A stretch of 38,087 nt of DNA, taken from a virus (taxonomy: Duplodnaviria > Heunggongvirae > Uroviricota > Caudoviricetes). The stretch lies in IMG/VR virus record IMGVR_UViG_2711768019_000014. One strand, given 5' to 3'. Each line of letters opens with the position of its first letter. The stretch's first letter is position 1. A program made the position numbers and the translations under genes. Positions 1,032-37,312 of the stretch are shown piece by piece. The notes under the pieces are model-generated. The model saw only the letters and a list, made by a program, of their open reading frames with translations. It had not been told where the DNA came from and made no database searches.

Positions 1032-4000
1032 TCAACGAATACTGATGCCGGAAGCGGCTTTTTTGGTCACAATCACCGTACAGTCGGTGATATTGCCTGC
1101 CCCCTGATTGCCTTTCTGGAAAATCTTAAACTCCAGAGTGACGCTTCCCCTGCCACTCGGCATATCAATAACTGCACTGTAACTACCGGGAATGGCCCCT
1201 TTAGTTTCTCTGGATGCGATTAATACGCCGTTTTTGCGAACTTCAAAACCATAACCCGTGTATCGCGTGCCTCCTGGGTTATTTCCGCTCCCCGGATCGT
1301 CATACGCTATACCGTTAAAAATAATGGGCGGAATAATAATCTGGCGGTCAAAGTTATGATCATCGCTGATGGTGACTGTAACCGTACCGTCTGGTGTTTC
1401 CGTGTTACCCCACGTACCGACTTTTTTCGGGAAGGCTTTTGATACAGCTTTAACGAAATCTCCTCTGACCTGGGTCGCCTCCAGCATGCCCTTAATCGTA
1501 CAGTTCTGGTTAATCGTGACATTGTTGAGCGTCCCTGAATTTGCATTCACATTACCGCTGATATCCGCATTTTTAGCGGTCAGCTTTCCGTCTGGTGTCA
1601 GGGAAAATGCCGGCGGATTTCCACCGCTGGTAATGGTGGGAGCCGTCAGGCGTTTCAGGAACACGTCATTCATGAATATCTGGTTGCCCTGCGCCACAAA
1701 CATCGGCGTTTCATTCCCGTTTGCCGGGTCAATAAACGCGATACGGTTAGCGGCAACCAGAAACTGGCTCAGTTTGCCTTCCTCCGTGTCCTCCATGCTG
1801 AGGCCAATACCCGCGACATAATGTTTGCCGTCTTTGGTCTGCTCAATTTTGACGCCCCACATGGCATTCCACTTATCGTTGGCGTCCTTCCACTCTTTCG
1901 AAAACTCCTCCAGTCTGCTGGCGTTATCCTCCGTCAGGTCGACTTTTTCCAGCAGCTCCTGGCCGAGATGGGATTCGGTTATCTGGCCTTTGAAAAAATC
2001 CAGGTAACCTTCCGCATCATCGCTCGCCCGACCGACAGCCTCCACGAATGCTGATTTGCCGACGGTGTTCACACTGCGGATATAAAAGTAATAATCATGG
2101 CCCGGCTTAATATTGATACTGGCGGCTATCCAGTACAGCCCCGTGCCAAGGTAGCGGGCTGTGGTTTCAACCTGCCTGATATCCGCAATCCGTTTTTCCG
2201 AGAACCAGAACTCAAACTGTACCGTCGGGTCATAAACCGCAAGATGCGGCGTGGCGGTTATCTGAAAATAGCCCGGCGTCAGCTCAATCCGCGACGGCGC
2301 TGCCGGTGCGGCAATCCGGAACGATACCGACGCCGGATCGCCCTGCTGCCCCCACGCATTTACTGCCCGGACTGTCAGCCTGTAGTTCCCCAGAGCCAGT
2401 TGTGTGAAGCGGTAAGTGGTTTCCGTCGTCCGGGCCGTGCTGACCAGCCGCTCACGGCCGTCATCCGCTGCCACGGTCAGGCGAAGCAGGAAGCTCACGC
2501 CCTTCACCACCTTCGGCGTGTCCCAGCGGGCCAGCACCTGGTATTCCCCGCTGTCTGCGGTGACTTCTGCGGTCAGGTGCTGCACCGCTGGCGGCGTGAC
2601 ACCATTTACCGTGCCGCTCTGGTCGCCGTCAAAGTGCGCCCCGTTATCCACGATGGCCTCTTTTTCCGGTACATGCTGCACGGCAGTGATGGCATACGTG
2701 CCGTCGTCGTTCTCACGGATACTCACGCAGCGGAACAGGCGCTGGCGCAGCGTCGGCAGCTTCAGCCCCCATACGCTGTATTCAGCAACGCCGTCAGGAA
2801 CACGGCTCACTTTCACCTTCACGCCGTCGGTGACGGACTGAACCTCCACGCTGACCGGATTGCCACTTCCGTCAACCAGGCTTATCAGCATGGTACCGGA
2901 GGATGGCAGCGTGATTTCACGGTCGAGCGTCAGCGTCCGGGTCTGGCTGTTTACCGCCAGCACGCGCCCGCCGGTGCGGATACCGGCATAGTCATCATCG
3001 CAGATTTCAATGACATCGCCCGGTACATGGCGAAGCCCTTCGGCACCCACGCTGAAGTCCACGGTCTGCGTTTCCAGCAGTTCTGTTTTAATCAGCCANN
3101 NNNNNNNNNNNNNNNNNNNNNNNNNNNNNNNNNNNNNNNNNNNNNNNCTTCGTGACGTTACGACCGTAACGGGCAATGGCCTGCGTGTCCTCCACAAGCT
3201 CTGTCGCCGTCTCCCAGCCGTTATTCGGGTCAATCCAGTTCACCTCAACGGCATTATGGCGGTCCTTCAGGGCGCTGAAGCTGTAGCGGAACGGCGCACC
3301 ATCATCCGGCATCACCACATTACTGCGGTTATAGGTCCACACCTTATCCGACGGTCGGTCCTGCACGAACGTCAGCGTCTGCCCGTTCCATACCGGCATA
3401 CAGCGCATCGCCGAGCAGAAATCACTGAGCACATCCCACGCCTTGCGCTGTGTGGTCAGGTACGCATTACAGGTGATGCGCNNNNNNNNNNNNNNNNNNN
3501 NNNNNNNNNNNNNNNNNNNNNNNNNNNNNNNNNNNNNNNNNNNNNNNNNNNNNNNNNNNNNNNNNNNNNNNNNNNNNNNNNNNNNNNNNNNNNNNNNNNN
3601 NNNNNNNNNNNNNNNNNNNNNNNNNNNNNNNNNNNNNNNNNNNNNNNNNNNNNNNNNNNNNNNNNNNNNNNNNNNNNNNNNNNNNNNNNNNNNNNNNNNN
3701 NNNNNNNNACGGCACCTGCAGAATGCGCCCGCGCAGATGATAATTACGGCTCACCTGCTGGCTGCCGAACTGCTCCGAATCCACCTGCACGCCGACCAGT
3801 GCCGTGTTCGGGTAGCACTGTTTCACATCGATGATTTCGGTGTATGACGACCAGAGCGTTTTGTTCTGCAGCTGGTCTGTGGTGCTGTCCGGCGTCATCC
3901 TGCGCATCCGTATATTGAACGGGCGCGGCGGCAGGTTACCCACCACCACCGAGGCCAGATACTGCGAGGTGGTTTTGCCCTTAATGGTGATGTCTTTTTC

Positions 4001-5155: not shown

Positions 5156-5822
5156 TTGTCGGTATACCTCTCTCGTTTGCTCAGTTGTTCAGGAATATGG
5201 TGCAGCAGCTCGCCGTCACCACAGTAAATGGCGGCATGATTCGGCACCGATGAACCAAAACAGCACAGCAGCACATCGCCCGGCTGCGCCGCTGACAACG
5301 GCACCTGATACAGCCCTGTANNNNNNNNNNNNNNNNNNNNNNNNNNNNNNNNNNNNNNNNNNNNNNNNNNNNNNNNNNNNNNNNNNNNNNNNNNNNNNNN
5401 NNNNNNNNNNNNNNNNNNNNNNNNNNNNNNNNNNNNNNNNNNNNNNNNNNNNNNNNNNNNNNNNNNNNNNNNNNNNNNNNNNNNNNNNNNNNNNNNNNNN
5501 NNNNNNNNNNNNNNNNNNNNNNNNNNNNNNNNNNNNNNNNNNNNNNNNNNNNNNNNNNNNNNNNNNNNNNNNNNNNNNNNNNNNNNNNNNNNNNNNNNNN
5601 NNNNNNNNNNNNNNNNNNNNNNNNNNNNNNNNNNNNNNNNNNNNNNNNNNNNNNNNNNNNNNNNNNNNNNNNNNNNNNNNNNNNNNNNNNNNNNNNNNNN
5701 NNNNNNNNNNNNNNNNNNNNNNNNNNNNNNNNNNNNNNNNNNNNNNNNNNNNNNNNNNNNNNNNNNNNNNNNNNNGCACATCGCCGGGCGTGCGCCAGAA
5801 TCGCTGATTCTGTCTGTGTCAT
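5053..5822 (-). CDS. K: Tail assembly protein K (NlpC/P60-type cysteine peptidase domain); interrupted by an N-masked block
   Basis: N-terminus MTQTESAILAHARRC before the mask; C-terminal part carries a Cys/His motif (VLLCCFGSSVPNHAAIYCGDGELLHH); position between L and I. Confidence 0.8.
5321..5775. other. N-masked block (455 nt) inside K
   Basis: Run of n. Confidence 1.
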
Positions 5823-5827
5823 GGGAT

Positions 5828-6573
5828 TTACTGCGAAAGTTTGTTAATGGAAAGGAAGCCGCCAAAGTTGCCGACGTTATTGCGAAACTTACAGCCGCTC
5901 AGGCATTTGCTGCATTTATCCTTCGTGATATCGGACGTCGGCTGATCATATTCATCCGCGACCGCCGGACCGTGATAACCGCACTCATCGCCGCGATAGG
6001 TCCAGGTGCAGGTGTTGGCCAGCATGATACGTCCCGGAAAAACGGCACCGTCCGTTTCCGTCNNNNNNNNNNNNNNNNNNNNNNNNNNNNNNNNNNNNNN
6101 NNNNNNNNNNNNNNNNNNNNNNNNNNNNNNNNNNNNNNNNNNNNNNNNNNNNNNNNNNNNNNNNNNNNNNNNNNNNNNNNNNNNNNNNNNNNNNNNNNNN
6201 NNNNNNNNNNNNNNNNNNNNNNNNNNNNNNNNNNNNNNNNNNNNNNNNNNNNNNNNNNNNNNNNNNNNNNNNNNNNNNNNNNNNNNNNNNNNNNNNNNNN
6301 NNNNNNNNNNNNNNNNNNNNNNNNNNNNNNNNNNNNNNNNNNNNNNNNNNNNNNNNNNNNNNNNNNNNNNNNNNNNNNNNNNNNNNNNNNNNNNNNNNNN
6401 NNNNNNNNCTGTCGCCCCTGCCAGGTGACCGGCTCACCTTTTTCGTTCTGCTCATTACAGAAAAAATAACGTTCTCCACCGACCTCTGTCAGATCGATTT
6501 CCCAGAGCACCACCTGGGCTGACTGAGTGAGGCGTGTCGTCTCATGATGTGTTTCCTGTGGAATATCCTGCAT
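5828..6573 (-). CDS. L: Minor tail protein L; interrupted by an N-masked block
   Basis: N-terminal segment MQDIPQETHHETT... and a Cys-rich C-terminal segment (CTWTYRGDECGYHGPAVADEYDQPTSDITKDKCSKCLSGC) lie in different frames either side of the mask; position between M and K. Confidence 0.8.
6063..6408. other. N-masked block (346 nt) inside L
   Basis: Run of n. Confidence 1.
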
Positions 6574-21385: not shown

Positions 21386-21776
21386 NNNNNNNNNNNNNNN
21401 NNNNNNNNNNNNNNNNNNNNNNNNNNNNNNNNNNNNNNNNNNNNNNNNNNNNNNNNNNNNNNNNNNNNNNNNNNNNNNNNNNNNNNNNNNNNNNNNNNNN
21501 NNNNNNNNNNNNNNNNNNNNNNNNNNNNNNNNNNNNNNNNNNNNNNNNNNNNNNNNNNNNNNNNNNNNNNNNNNNNNNNNNNNNNNNNNNNNNNNNNNNN
21601 NNNNNNNNNNNNNNNNNNNNNNNNNNNNNNNNNNNNNNNNNNNNNNNNNNNNNNNNNNNNNNNNNNNNNNNNNNNNNNNNNNNNNNNNNNNNNNNNNNNN
21701 NNNNNNNNNNNNNNNNNNNNNNNNNNNNNNNNNNNNNNNNNNNNNNNNNNNNNNNNNNNNNNNNNNNNNNNNNNNN
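21386..21776. other. N-masked block (391 nt) covering most of the holin and the holin-lysozyme junction
   Basis: Run of n. Confidence 1.
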
Positions 21777-34072: not shown

Positions 34073-34248
34073 TTTCATTACTGCAAATGCCCCTGCGGGG
34101 GCATTTACGGAAGCGATAATTTTAACTATTGCCGCCCCTATAAAGAACCATTAAACAATAACGTGACGTAGCTATTGATAGTAAATGAAGCACTTGCAAA
34201 ATAATTGCATTGCGTATATATACACACATGTGTTGTATTACAGCGATA

Positions 34249-35043
34249 ATGGTAAAGCAAATGATTAACTCTGAAGCAATTGAGCAACTAATGTGGCTAT
34301 GGTCCTTATTTGACATTAAATTCTTATCTATTCTTGCCGCTGCCTTCACTATATATTTTGGCGTGCAAAAAATATCAAAAAAGGTGACAGTGTCGTATTC
34401 AGCAAATGCAAGTAGAATATATGACATGCATATATCAACCATAATCCTGAATAATAAAAGAGATAATGCAATTGCTATATCTTCAATCAATATGGAGGTT
34501 GAAGGTAAAGGGATACTACAAGTTATTAAATTTGACTCCCCTCTTCTTTTAAAGAACTATGATTCTTTAAAAGTTGAACCACCAAAATTTAGCAGCCTTT
34601 ACAATAATGATGGCGTAGTTAAGTTAGATATTTCTGATAAGTTTCATTTTTATATAATCACGACATCTGGAGATGAAATTAAATGTATTTCTGAAAATAA
34701 ATATGTAGCACCAAACATGGAAAACAAAATAGCTACAGACATAAGAAAATTTAATGGCATTGTCTTAACAAACAGAATGTCTTATATTTTTTTCTATGCA
34801 AATGACAACGGAGAGAAATACTGCATAATAGATGTTTCATTGTTCATAAATGGTGACAACCCATTTCATTTTAATTTTTTAAAAGAAGATGAATTAAGAG
34901 ATTTTTCTAGCATCCTTATTAGTTACGGATATCACCAACAGTTTAAAAGTTATGCATTGTTTAAAATAGACAACCATCTTGCTCCTTCTTTGGTTTTAAA
35001 TAAATCAATGATAGAAAATAATATTATTGAAATGAATAAGTAA
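34249..35043 (+). CDS. AT-rich membrane-anchored protein of unknown function (start uncertain; ORF opens at 34210)
   Basis: N-terminal transmembrane helix (FLSILAAAFTIYFGV) and a soluble domain of about 220 aa rich in N/K/I; own promoter-like TTGCAA-N17-TATATA at 34194-34222; very low GC. Confidence 0.6.
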   Translation: MVKQMINSEAIEQLMWLWSLFDIKFLSILAAAFTIYFGVQKISKKVTVSYSANASRIYDMHISTIILNNKRDNAIAISSINMEVEGKGILQVIKFDSPLLLKNYDSLKVEPPKFSSLYNNDGVVKLDISDKFHFYIITTSGDEIKCISENKYVAPNMENKIATDIRKFNGIVLTNRMSYIFFYANDNGEKYCIIDVSLFINGDNPFHFNFLKEDELRDFSSILISYGYHQQFKSYALFKIDNHLAPSLVLNKSMIENNIIEMNK

Positions 35044-35079
35044 CTCACCGGGTGCAGCCGGTTATGATGGAGAAATGAT

Positions 35080-35361
35080 ATGAATACCTTGTTTTTACTG
35101 ATGGCTGAATTCAATACCCCAAACATTGAACTCTCAGCAGTTAGTCAAAAATACTTTGGTATGAGTCCAGCCACAGCAGAAGCAAAAGCAAACGCTTGTA
35201 AGTTGCCTGTACCTACATATCGCATCGGTACATCACAAAAAGCAAAACGTTGCATCAATATTCAGGATCTTGCGGAATACATAGACAAAAGACGAGAAGA
35301 AGGACGTATCGAGTGGGAACAGGTCAGAACAGGCAAACAGAAGGGCAAAGAACATCACTAA
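35080..35361 (+). CDS. PrtN-like small DNA-binding protein (excisionase/activator-like)
   Basis: 93 aa; GGAG Shine-Dalgarno; central region KLPVPTYRIGTSQKAKRCINIQDLAEYID resembles PrtN/AlpA-type HTH proteins as I recall them. Confidence 0.55.
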   Translation: MNTLFLLMAEFNTPNIELSAVSQKYFGMSPATAEAKANACKLPVPTYRIGTSQKAKRCINIQDLAEYIDKRREEGRIEWEQVRTGKQKGKEHH

Positions 35362-35396
35362 AGAAAAAACCCGCCTAAAGGCGGGTTTTCAAAAAG
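35362..35396. terminator. Bidirectional rho-independent terminator shared by the convergent plus- and minus-strand operons
   Basis: gaaaaaacccgcc-taaa-ggcgggttttcaaaaa. Confidence 0.65.
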
Positions 35397-35408
35397 CACC
35401 AGCTATGA

Positions 35409-35582
35409 TCATGCTGCTTTGCGACGACGAAGCTTACCCTGCTGCTCTTTACCAGAGACAGTAGCGTGAGTGAACGCATTAGGAGCAGCCTTCATCAGAA
35501 CTTCAACAGCAGCACCCATACCTGCGAATGCTTTCATTGTGTCGAACTTAACCTGTGGCTTGGTTGCTTTTTGATCTTCCAT
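35409..35582 (-). CDS. Small basic protein (57 aa), last gene of the minus-strand operon; absent from the ORF track, which lists only ORFs of 60 aa or more
   Basis: Hand translation MEDQKATKPQVKFDTMKAFAGMGAAVEVLMKAAPNAFTHATVSGKEQQGKLRRRKAA; GGAG 7 nt upstream; ends just before the bidirectional terminator. Confidence 0.45.
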   Translation of the reverse strand: MEDQKATKPQVKFDTMKAFAGMGAAVEVLMKAAPNAFTHATVSGKEQQGKLRRRKAA

Positions 35583-35621
35583 AGAAAACTCCAGAAGCTA
35601 TACCGAAACAATTCCTGTTGT

Positions 35622-36041
35622 TTACTCATCATCAATAGATGATACGCAATATTTATTTTTAAATTTAAGGTTCTTTGGCGTAACTTCATCAGATATATCA
35701 AAACCGTCCAGAATTCTATTGAATGTAGCTTCTGGCATATCATCATGAACGGAAATCTCACCCGATCGCTGCTTTCTAACCATGTTATCCACTCGCCAAA
35801 TTATAGCTTCAGCGTAAACAACATAACTTGGATGCTTGATAAAGCGATGATCACCAGAATTCAAGACGCAAGACGGATCGTGGGGGACACCATCCTTGAT
35901 ACTAGAAATATTAACAACTAAAACACAATAACAATCGTTAACGGGGTAATAAACAGGATCATTACAAATCACATGAAGATGATTGCATGGCCCAGTTGGG
36001 GCAAGCACAGTTCCTTTCCTGTATGGCTGATAATCCGTCAT
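35622..36041 (-). CDS. Hypothetical protein (139 aa), candidate toxin/effector partner of the Panacea-like gene
   Basis: ATGA start/stop overlap with the upstream 66-aa gene; Cys/His-rich N-terminal half; loose resemblance to MazF/PemK-like toxins is a guess only. Confidence 0.55.
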   Translation of the reverse strand: MTDYQPYRKGTVLAPTGPCNHLHVICNDPVYYPVNDCYCVLVVNISSIKDGVPHDPSCVLNSGDHRFIKHPSYVVYAEAIIWRVDNMVRKQRSGEISVHDDMPEATFNRILDGFDISDEVTPKNLKFKNKYCVSSIDDE

Positions 36042-36238
36042 GATAATTGCAAAGAAAATTCCTTAAGTTTCTGAGATTCTTCCATTTTGCCAATTATACG
36101 ATTAGCCTCATCCTCGCTTTTACCCTCACTGATCAGCATTTCTTTCAGGTCTATAGGCTTACGAGAATTGCCAGGATTGTGCCACTCTGGACAAACGCTT
36201 TCTAAATGCGTCATGTTTGCGAGATCAAATCGGTTCAT
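36038..36238 (-). CDS. Hypothetical small protein (66 aa) within the Panacea-like operon
   Basis: Start overlaps the 3' end of the Panacea-like gene; stop overlaps the next start (ATGA). Confidence 0.5.
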   Translation of the reverse strand: MNRFDLANMTHLESVCPEWHNPGNSRKPIDLKEMLISEGKSEDEANRIIGKMEESQKLKEFSLQLS

Positions 36239-36659
36239 ATGCCCATACAGAGAATAGATNNNNNNNNNNNNNNNNNNNNNNNNNNNNNNNNNNNNNNNNN
36301 NNNNNNNNNNNNNNNNNNNNNNNNNNNNNNNNNNNNNNNNNNNNNNNNNNNNNNNNNNNNNNNNNNNNNNNNNNNNNNNNNNNNNNNNNNNNNNNNNNNN
36401 NNNNNNNNNNNNNNNNNNNNNNNNNNNNNNNNNNNNNNNNNNNNNNNNNNNNNNNNNNNNNNNNNNNNNNNNNNNNNNNNNNNNNNNNNNNNNNNNNNNN
36501 NNNNNNNNNNNNNNNNNNNNNNNNNNNNNNNNNNNNNNNNNNNNNNNNNNNGCGGTTAGACAGATAGAGCAGCTTCATCAATTTCAGATATGCCATGCGC
36601 CCACCTCGCTTAAGAAGTAGGTATGCAGCCATTTGAGCTACTTTTTCTTCGCAAAACAT
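36225..36659 (-). CDS. Panacea (DUF4065, SocA-like) domain protein, candidate antitoxin; the middle is N-masked
   Basis: N-terminus MFCEEKVAQMAAYLLLKRGGRMAYLKLMKLLYLSNR matches the Panacea signature (...LKLQKLLY...) as I recall it; GAGG Shine-Dalgarno 8 nt upstream. Confidence 0.6.
   Translation of the reverse strand: MFCEEKVAQMAAYLLLKRGGRMAYLKLMKLLYLSNRXXXXXXXXXXXXXXXXXXXXXXXXXXXXXXXXXXXXXXXXXXXXXXXXXXXXXXXXXXXXXXXXXXXXXXXXXXXXXXXXXXXXXXXXXXXXXXXXXXLFSVWAYEPI
36260..36551. other. N-masked block (292 nt) inside the Panacea-like gene
   Basis: Run of n. Confidence 1.
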
Positions 36660-36751
36660 ATAAGAAACCTCAAAGATAGTGAACTTTGTAATTATTCTCG
36701 ATACTTCATGGGTTGCTTCATCACCAACATGAGCTTCTTATGGTGTGCCCA

Positions 36752-36763
36752 CTTAGGCCTAAG
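36752..36763. repeat. 12-bp perfect palindrome CTTAGGCCTAAG upstream of the Panacea-like operon (candidate operator)
   Basis: Read directly; about 95 nt upstream of the operon's first start codon. Confidence 0.35.
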
Positions 36764-37312
36764 CAACTAGTTACCTTGTTTGTCAAGTTTATAGCTGGCT
36801 TTAATCATGGTCAATTGAAGTGATGAGCAAATGATGCTTTCTAAGAATAACAGGTTCCCAATAGGCTCCCACAAAGTGTATAACTAGTTGTTTTTCAAAA
36901 ACGGTACATCCTATCGAGCATTGGTGCAACGCTAAACCGACCACTCCAGTGAACGTCAGTTTTTTCAGGCATTGCGCTGGTTTGGTTGATTTTTTGCATT
37001 TCAGAATTACCGTGCATTTTCAAATGTAGAGATTATTTTATCGATATATCATGGGGTTATGTTATTCAGCATCACTATTCAGGAGGCTCAATAGCGGGGT
37101 ACTATACCATAACAACAGGAAGCGCCTGTCTCATTGCAAAAGAAAATTGAGATCCTCTCAAGGCATGAAGCTCTCACGAAGTGATGGAAATAATCTTATT
37201 AGCCGTTAACTTTGTTAAGGCCAATGATAAACAATCCAGGTTCGACGATAAATAAAAAATCACACATTAAACTCTGGTGATATATCTCCCTGCTAATAGC
37301 ATTGATAGAGAA

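Follow-up and report, generated by a model that had tools for sequence, protein, structure and literature searches.

The IMG/VR virus record IMGVR_UViG_2711768019_000014 (38,087 nucleotides; this whole stretch is referred to below as the window) contains on its minus strand two adjoining genes, panA (36038–36659) and panT (35622–36041), which probably, at roughly three chances in four, constitute a bicistronic type II toxin–antitoxin cassette of the PanAT class. In this assignment panA encodes a Panacea-domain antitoxin, and the translationally coupled panT encodes a putative toxin of 139 amino acids (aa) with a MazF/Kid-like fold, placed by its sequence in cluster T6 of Kurata et al. (2022). 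The PanT family, its pairing with Panacea proteins and its MazF-like fold were already published in 2022, and no new category is claimed here. A first-pass annotation of the same DNA had recorded four open reading frames (ORFs) on the minus strand, at 36225–36659, 36038–36238, 35622–36041 and 35409–35582, and all four are present. They had been described as a Panacea-type antitoxin gene followed by three uncharacterized partner genes, forming a toxin–antitoxin-type cargo module of a prophage. The character of the module is borne out by the Panacea domain together with the apparent T6 partner. However, only one partner is left, since the 66-aa ORF is a part of PanA and the 57-aa ORF belongs to the prophage backbone.

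The reduction in the number of genes follows from a mask in the sequence. A run of 292 N at 36260–36551 covers part of panA, whereas the region outside the mask is 100 % identical to many Escherichia coli chromosomes. In all 15 of the relative records listed, the match covers 1452 bp as opposed to 1501 bp of the query. In NZ_CP029741 the flanks of the mask lie 243 bp apart, corresponding to 81 codons in frame and giving a single ORF of 190 aa (573 bp), so that panA is 49 nt longer in the window than in its relatives owing to the 292-N mask. The Prokaryotic Genome Annotation Pipeline (PGAP) annotates one ‘Panacea domain-containing protein’ in the relative (WP_000458583.1), and the 573-bp gene is found in one piece, at ≥80 % coverage, in 208 of the 208 panA-bearing complete E. 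coli genomes. The 66-aa ORF, which had been read as a separate gene translationally coupled to the first, corresponds to PanA residues 125–190, the C-terminal third of the protein, and holds the most conserved PanA motif, TH..CPEW.DP.GSS.PI. PanA homologues from 17 other loci (184–191 aa) run uninterrupted across this part, with the motif invariant. Because the relatives carry one in-frame 190-aa panA, the 66-aa gene is an artefact of the mask. Judged from these sequence comparisons, the ‘144-aa’ and ‘66-aa’ genes are two halves of one panA, barring a real 49-bp insertion in the window strain.

Other N-runs in the window are located at 3099–3147, 3482–3708, 5321–5775, 6063–6408 and 21386–21776. 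Compared with near-identical relatives, the lengths of the runs are 292 versus 243 and 227 versus 223, the others being deduced from alignment blocks. Since the lengths of the masks are unfaithful, frames cannot be read across them, and ORFs that cross a mask acquire false frameshifts. Masks of this kind therefore lead to false gene splits, of which the one in panA is corrected here.

The assignment of the first gene to the Panacea/DUF4065 family, proposed in the first-pass annotation, holds for the full-length protein. The 190-aa PanA, taken from a 100 %-identical relative, matches PF13274 (SocA_Panacea) over residues 27–137 with a score of 67.9 bits (cutoff 25.7) and an E value of 1.8e-18, whereas the visible PanA fragments of the window alone give no Pfam match, the core of the domain lying under the mask. 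PanA consists of a stand-alone Panacea domain and a conserved C-terminal tail of ∼50 residues (138–190), and it contains no helix–turn–helix domain. PF13274 is shared with the antitoxin of the type VI system SocAB of Caulobacter, SocA being the protein after which the Panacea Pfam family was named. The two systems differ in their partners, which are SocB in Caulobacter and a MazF-fold protein here, and PanA reaches only 13.5 bits with NCBIfam NF047745, the equivalog model for SocA, for which the cutoff is 190. SocA acts by ClpXP-adaptor-mediated degradation. In contrast, stand-alone PanA proteins neutralize their toxins by binding (Kurata et al., 2022; PMC8832971).

The second gene begins with an ATG that overlaps the TGA of panA as ATGA. 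PGAP instead places the start of PanT at an internal GTG, giving a ‘hypothetical protein’ of 128 aa (6744–7130 in the relative record L001). Because PanT homologues have a common N-terminus, MTxYxPYRKGT, the ATG start and the 139-aa product are better supported than the GTG start, and the ATGA coupling noted in the first-pass annotation stands. In a side observation that concerns the same junction, one protein cluster at 90 % identity mixes the 190-aa PanA, the 128-aa PanT and a 232-aa ‘DUF4065 domain-containing protein’ of E. coli O121:H19, which suggests that some assemblies have a differently called or fused ORF over the panA–panT junction.

No match to PanT was found in Pfam, NCBIfam or PADLOC, and among the phage protein families only phrog_19071, of unknown function, is matched. 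Structure prediction and fold search, which had been proposed for all of the partner proteins, were run for the 139-aa protein. The AlphaFold2 model, which was based on 35 homologues, is confident, with a predicted local distance difference test score (pLDDT) of 91.2 and a predicted template-modelling score (pTM) of 0.85. The best 50 Foldseek matches of this model are all MazF/Kid chains (best E value 1.1e-3, probability 0.95–1.00, target-normalized TM-score ∼0.65), and the model thus has the MazF/CcdB-type fold. An exhaustive profile search of the PanT family gave 2,702 representatives (clustered at 50 % identity) at E ≤ 1e-3 and 926 at E ≤ 1e-10, and most of the lengths are ∼130 aa among the 150 representatives listed. 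His21 is invariant in the family, and Asp55, Cys58, His65, Ser72 and Tyr76 are each present in ≥90 % of the sequences. The statement of the first-pass annotation that none of the partners could be placed in a known family is therefore no longer valid for this protein, which falls within the published PanT cluster T6.

The link to this cluster is provided by two homologues. The homologue from Chimaeribacter coloradensis 2016-Iso4 (P0104, 57 % identity) is WP_101821906.1, that from Salinivibrio (P0151, 49 % identity) is WP_025672779.1, and both accessions are listed as T6 toxins in Dataset S1 of Kurata et al. (2022; PNAS, PMC8832971). According to the same data set, T6 toxins adjoin stand-alone PanA proteins in the order antitoxin–toxin, with overlaps of −4, −1 or +1, and the members come from Proteus, Pluralibacter, Pantoea septica LMG 5345, ‘Yersiniaceae bacterium 2016Iso4’, Salinivibrio socompensis, Methylococcales, Beggiatoa, Sphingomonadales, Rhizobiales and others. 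The cluster includes an experimentally validated member, the PanT of Pseudomonas moraviensis, which is toxic, is neutralized by its own PanA and co-purifies with it. Furthermore, this PanT specifically inhibits protein synthesis, the incorporation that is blocked being that of 35S-methionine and not that of thymidine, and it is EndoA/PemK/MazF-like in HHpred although it has no match in CDD (Kurata et al., 2022; PMC8832971).

The pair in the window resembles the P. moraviensis pair (PanA WP_083354365.1 and PanT WP_083201923.1) in several respects. In both, the antitoxin is a stand-alone Panacea protein (‘noNTD’), and the toxin encoded after it measures ∼130 aa, has no CDD or Pfam match and is MazF/PemK-like in its predicted structure; the gene order from antitoxin to toxin and the overlaps of −4 or −1 in the P. 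moraviensis cluster are also alike. In addition, the N-terminus of the window PanA, MFCEEKVAQ, is similar to the sequence MIFSEQKVAQ that was restored for the P. moraviensis PanA by its authors. The two differ in that the window pair is prophage-borne and missing from the table of Kurata et al., in which that of P. moraviensis is classed as ‘NotPhage’.

The pairing of the two genes is conserved well beyond E. coli. A PanA-like ORF stands directly before PanT in 24 of 25 species-representative loci from Alpha-, Beta- and Gammaproteobacteria, and the sole exception has just 235 nt of upstream sequence. In the 24 loci the distance from the end of the PanA ORF to PanT ranges from −4 to +77 nt, as measured to the start of the tblastn match, which omits up to ten N-terminal PanT residues in distant loci. 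The same pair is found in a Shewanella integrative island with integrase and AlpA, in a Vibrio P2-like prophage, in a Pantoea lambdoid prophage, where it lies between the repressor and N genes, and in a phage-like element of E. coli that also encodes a giant polyvalent protein of the MuF/LPD type. The two-gene arrangement of PanAT systems, conserved over unrelated genomes and mobile elements, is thus observed in these four further backgrounds as well as in the 24 loci. Temperate phages with sequenced genomes, among them SKA5 and Lys8385Vzw, also encode a PanT-type protein. Among 5426 complete E. coli genomes, panT is carried by 208 (∼4 %), so that a ‘hypothetical protein’ of these genomes gains a function class as the probable toxin of a PanAT pair from a validated T6 cluster.

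Based on the T6 pair of P. moraviensis, PanA would bind PanT directly and keep it inactive. The contact would involve either the Panacea core or the conserved C-terminal tail (residues 138–190), as suggested by the T6 member and by the work of Ernits et al. Free PanT would block translation, most likely as an endoribonuclease, and cause growth arrest. Transcription of the cassette probably starts at a promoter of its own and continues across the 57-aa backbone gene to the terminator between the two convergent operons. Another PanA-based toxin–antitoxin pair of E. coli, that of STEC O31 (cluster T3; Kurata et al., 2022), differs in that its toxin is a small transmembrane, membrane-depolarizing peptide, and neither the 139-aa nor the 57-aa protein is in T3.

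The genomic setting of the pair allows the limits of the cassette to be drawn. The window aligns collinearly with a ∼43-kb lambdoid prophage sitting in dusA of E. coli, in which the opposite end carries the integrase and an intact dusA, and the end adjacent to the attachment site (att) carries panAT. A displaced 5′ fragment of dusA at 36913–37017 on the minus strand, annotated by PGAP as the pseudogene ‘tRNA-dihydrouridine synthase, missing C-terminus’, marks the attachment site flanking the cassette. The slot of the cassette is occupied in mEp460 and other dusA prophages by an unrelated hypothetical protein of 177 aa (WP_000956557.1, mEp460 gp23), for which no Pfam or PADLOC match was found. 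Homology with the prophages that carry this alternative cargo stops at ∼36853 and picks up again at ∼35592 (8–9 nt into the query), and the exchangeable cassette therefore measures ∼1.2 kb and comprises only panA, panT and the upstream region. Its approximate limits are 35595–36852 on the minus strand, beyond which the DNA is common to prophages with the 177-aa gene in the slot, and its GC content is 38–41 %. As panAT alternates with the 177-aa gene, the att-adjacent position is a site of exchangeable cargo with at least two alleles. The placement in the prophage early region that had been given in the first-pass annotation is therefore correct as far as prophage cargo is concerned; however, the cargo lies between the dusA att site and the excisionase end and not in the early region proper. 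In a separate observation, the slot of most dusA-integrating E. coli prophages is filled by the 177-aa gene (at 2281–2814 in record L044 and at 1784–2317 in record L041, which is phage mEp460).

Several points limit the assignment of a toxin–antitoxin function to the pair or weigh against it. For the E. coli proteins themselves, toxicity, neutralization by binding and RNase activity are predicted from homology, and a biological role, in prophage maintenance or phage exclusion, is likewise putative. The 139-aa protein is, by sequence, a T6 member, but its tie to the P. moraviensis PanT runs through the cluster assignment of Kurata et al. and not through a direct alignment; in a homologue search with a broadened profile, no sequence named Pseudomonas was present among the best 120 of 484 matches. 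MazF, Kid (PemK) and ChpB (PF02452) have no significant sequence or profile similarity to PanT: PF02452 is not matched by PanT itself and is matched by one of 103 family representatives at an E value of 0.11, hhalign of PanT with E. coli MazF and ChpB gave a probability of 0.08 %, and a profile search of PDB sequences found no MazF or any other match. Furthermore, the conserved residues of PanT (His21, Asp55, Cys58, His65, Ser72 and Tyr76) are, at the level of sequence, not the Arg/Thr pair of E. coli MazF (Arg29 and Thr52), and the chemistry may differ. Among the 208 panT-bearing E. coli genomes, panT is truncated in five, whereas panA is truncated in none of 208, an asymmetry to be expected of a toxin–antitoxin pair if loss of the antitoxin alone is lethal; this support is weak, given the small counts and the relatedness of the genomes. 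Finally, the cluster T1 partners of PanA in E. coli MOD1_EC5558 and Salmonella phage Emek are recorded as ‘not toxic’ in Dataset S1 (PMC8832971), and adjacency to PanA alone is therefore no proof of toxicity.

A sequence-level link between PanT and MazF/PemK was rejected on the negative results from Pfam, the PDB profile search and hhalign, so that the two are linked by the fold comparison alone. PanT is also longer than MazF, Kid and ChpB, with two extra C-terminal helices in the model, and is accompanied by a Panacea protein, whereas the antitoxins of the MazF type are DNA-binding proteins of the MazE/PemI type.

The T1 partners raise the question of whether the 139-aa protein is a phage protein that associates with PanA but is not toxic, the pair having some other function. 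This is improbable, although a catalytic motif of the known toxin families is not detectable in PanT by sequence, since the protein is assigned to T6 and not to T1, the tested T6 member is toxic and neutralized, the fold is that of the MazF/Kid/CcdB toxins and the truncations in E. coli genomes hit panT only. In a further proposal, PanT would be a CcdB-like gyrase poison, or would act on some other target that is not RNA, instead of being a MazF-type endoribonuclease. The higher-ranking fold matches of PanT are all RNases and the tested T6 member blocked the incorporation of 35S-methionine and not of thymidine, making such a target quite improbable. Very improbable is an operon of several components, in which PanA would have a functional partner in the 57-aa protein, in the ‘66-aa’ protein or in both, be it as an additional toxin, as a chaperone or as a regulator. 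The 57-aa basic protein gene (35409–35582, minus strand) begins after a spacer of 39 nt from panT, which contains GGAG, in agreement with the Shine–Dalgarno sequence reported in the first-pass annotation, and as there is no terminator before it, it is likely to be co-transcribed with panAT. However, the ‘66-aa’ ORF is part of panA, and the 57-aa gene occurs in 562 of the 5426 complete E. coli genomes as opposed to 208 for panT, with ∼63 % of the carriers lacking PanAT. In phage mEp460 and other dusA prophages it follows the 177-aa gene, and a homologue is absent after panT in all four of the Shewanella, Vibrio, Pantoea and E. coli phage-like elements examined. Judged by this distribution, the 57-aa gene is backbone, lying outside the conserved module, and not a partner, and the multi-component operon is already largely refuted on this basis. 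The product matches phrog_2741, of unknown function.

The pair may, on the other hand, serve mainly as an anti-phage system of the prophage, acting by abortive infection or superinfection exclusion. Panacea would sense a cue of infection and release PanT, and translation would be shut down before the cycle of the invading phage is complete. Such a role would be layered on the toxin–antitoxin mechanism and is not a strict alternative to it. The location makes such a role plausible, in that the cargo is low in GC and occupies an exchangeable att-adjacent slot, shared by turns with the 177-aa gene, and in that the same pair is found at moron positions in P2-like and lambdoid prophages and in an integrative island. 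However, neither PanA nor PanT matches a PADLOC model, no report of phage protection by a stand-alone PanAT pair was found in the literature searched, and the sequence reveals no trigger; the proposal that phage exclusion is the main function is thus tentative and somewhat unlikely. In the PADLOC and NCBIfam searches of PanA, PanT and the 57-aa protein there was no meaningful match, with none in PADLOC-DB 2.0 at E ≤ 1. Even so, the att-adjacent slot of dusA prophages is an exchangeable cargo position that is worth screening for phage-exclusion functions.

A more far-reaching proposal combines this role with the chemistry of the toxin. The T6 PanT family, with ∼2,700 clusters at 50 % identity and no Pfam model, would represent a branch of the MazF fold with a mechanism of its own, in which His21, Asp55, Cys58 and His65 form a different (two-histidine or metal-dependent) site or in which a different target is attacked. 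At the same time, the pair in E. coli dusA prophages would be an exchangeable, Panacea-sensed abortive-infection module alternating with the 177-aa gene at an att-adjacent defence hotspot. Taken as a whole, this proposal is speculative and unlikely. The bicistronic PanAT toxin–antitoxin cassette is retained as the preferred assignment.

Downstream of the 57-aa gene, a strong intrinsic terminator at 35390–35365 on the minus strand, with an 11-bp stem containing six GC pairs followed by a T-run, closes the panA–panT–57-aa transcript. The first-pass annotation had described a bidirectional terminator shared by the two convergent operons; the stem-loop does lie between the convergent genes, but it is flagged as a terminator on the minus strand only, the stem being followed by no more than four T's on the plus strand. 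Within the cassette-specific DNA upstream of panA, the sequence TTGACC-17-TAAACT (36814–36786, minus strand) is a weak candidate for a sigma-70 promoter, with nine of 12 matches. It is a candidate only, as promoter-like sites in the region number three, compared with 5.8 expected from shuffled sequences.

The first-pass annotation had also pointed to a 12-bp palindrome upstream of the first gene as a possible autoregulatory operator. The perfect palindrome CTTAGGCCTAAG is indeed present at 36752–36763, 92 nt upstream of the panA ATG and downstream of the candidate promoter, in DNA that is specific to the cassette. However, perfect 12-bp palindromes occur seven times in the window, and an inverted repeat of equal or greater length was obtained in 26 of 100 shuffles of the 200-nt upstream region. 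The palindrome does not occur in the most closely related cassettes outside E. coli (Kosakonia and Pluralibacter), and no consistent inverted repeat was found across 28 loci. As an operator it was therefore rejected, being neither above chance nor conserved. It has been argued that Panacea itself is probably not autoregulating (Ernits et al., 2023; PMC10440598).

The 57-aa protein was also considered as a membrane PanT of the T3 type and was rejected on the basis of its distribution and its sequence character; its central segment contains charged residues and, as far as can be inferred from the sequence, is unlike a membrane helix.

On the other side of the terminator, the convergent early-left operon ends with a PrtN-family excisionase-like gene (35080–35361, plus strand), which matches PF11112 at an E value of 3.1e-23 and is called excisionase in mEp460. 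Between this gene and yfdQ (DUF2303), an island of 27–33 % GC at 34150–35050 contains an ORF of 277 aa (34210–35043, plus strand), which takes the place of the exonuclease, DUF551, yfdS and yfdR genes of a related prophage. No match was found when its product was searched against Pfam and PADLOC. The product has an N-terminal hydrophobic segment, the gene is found in 100 of the 5426 E. coli genomes, and it may represent a second cargo or defence gene.

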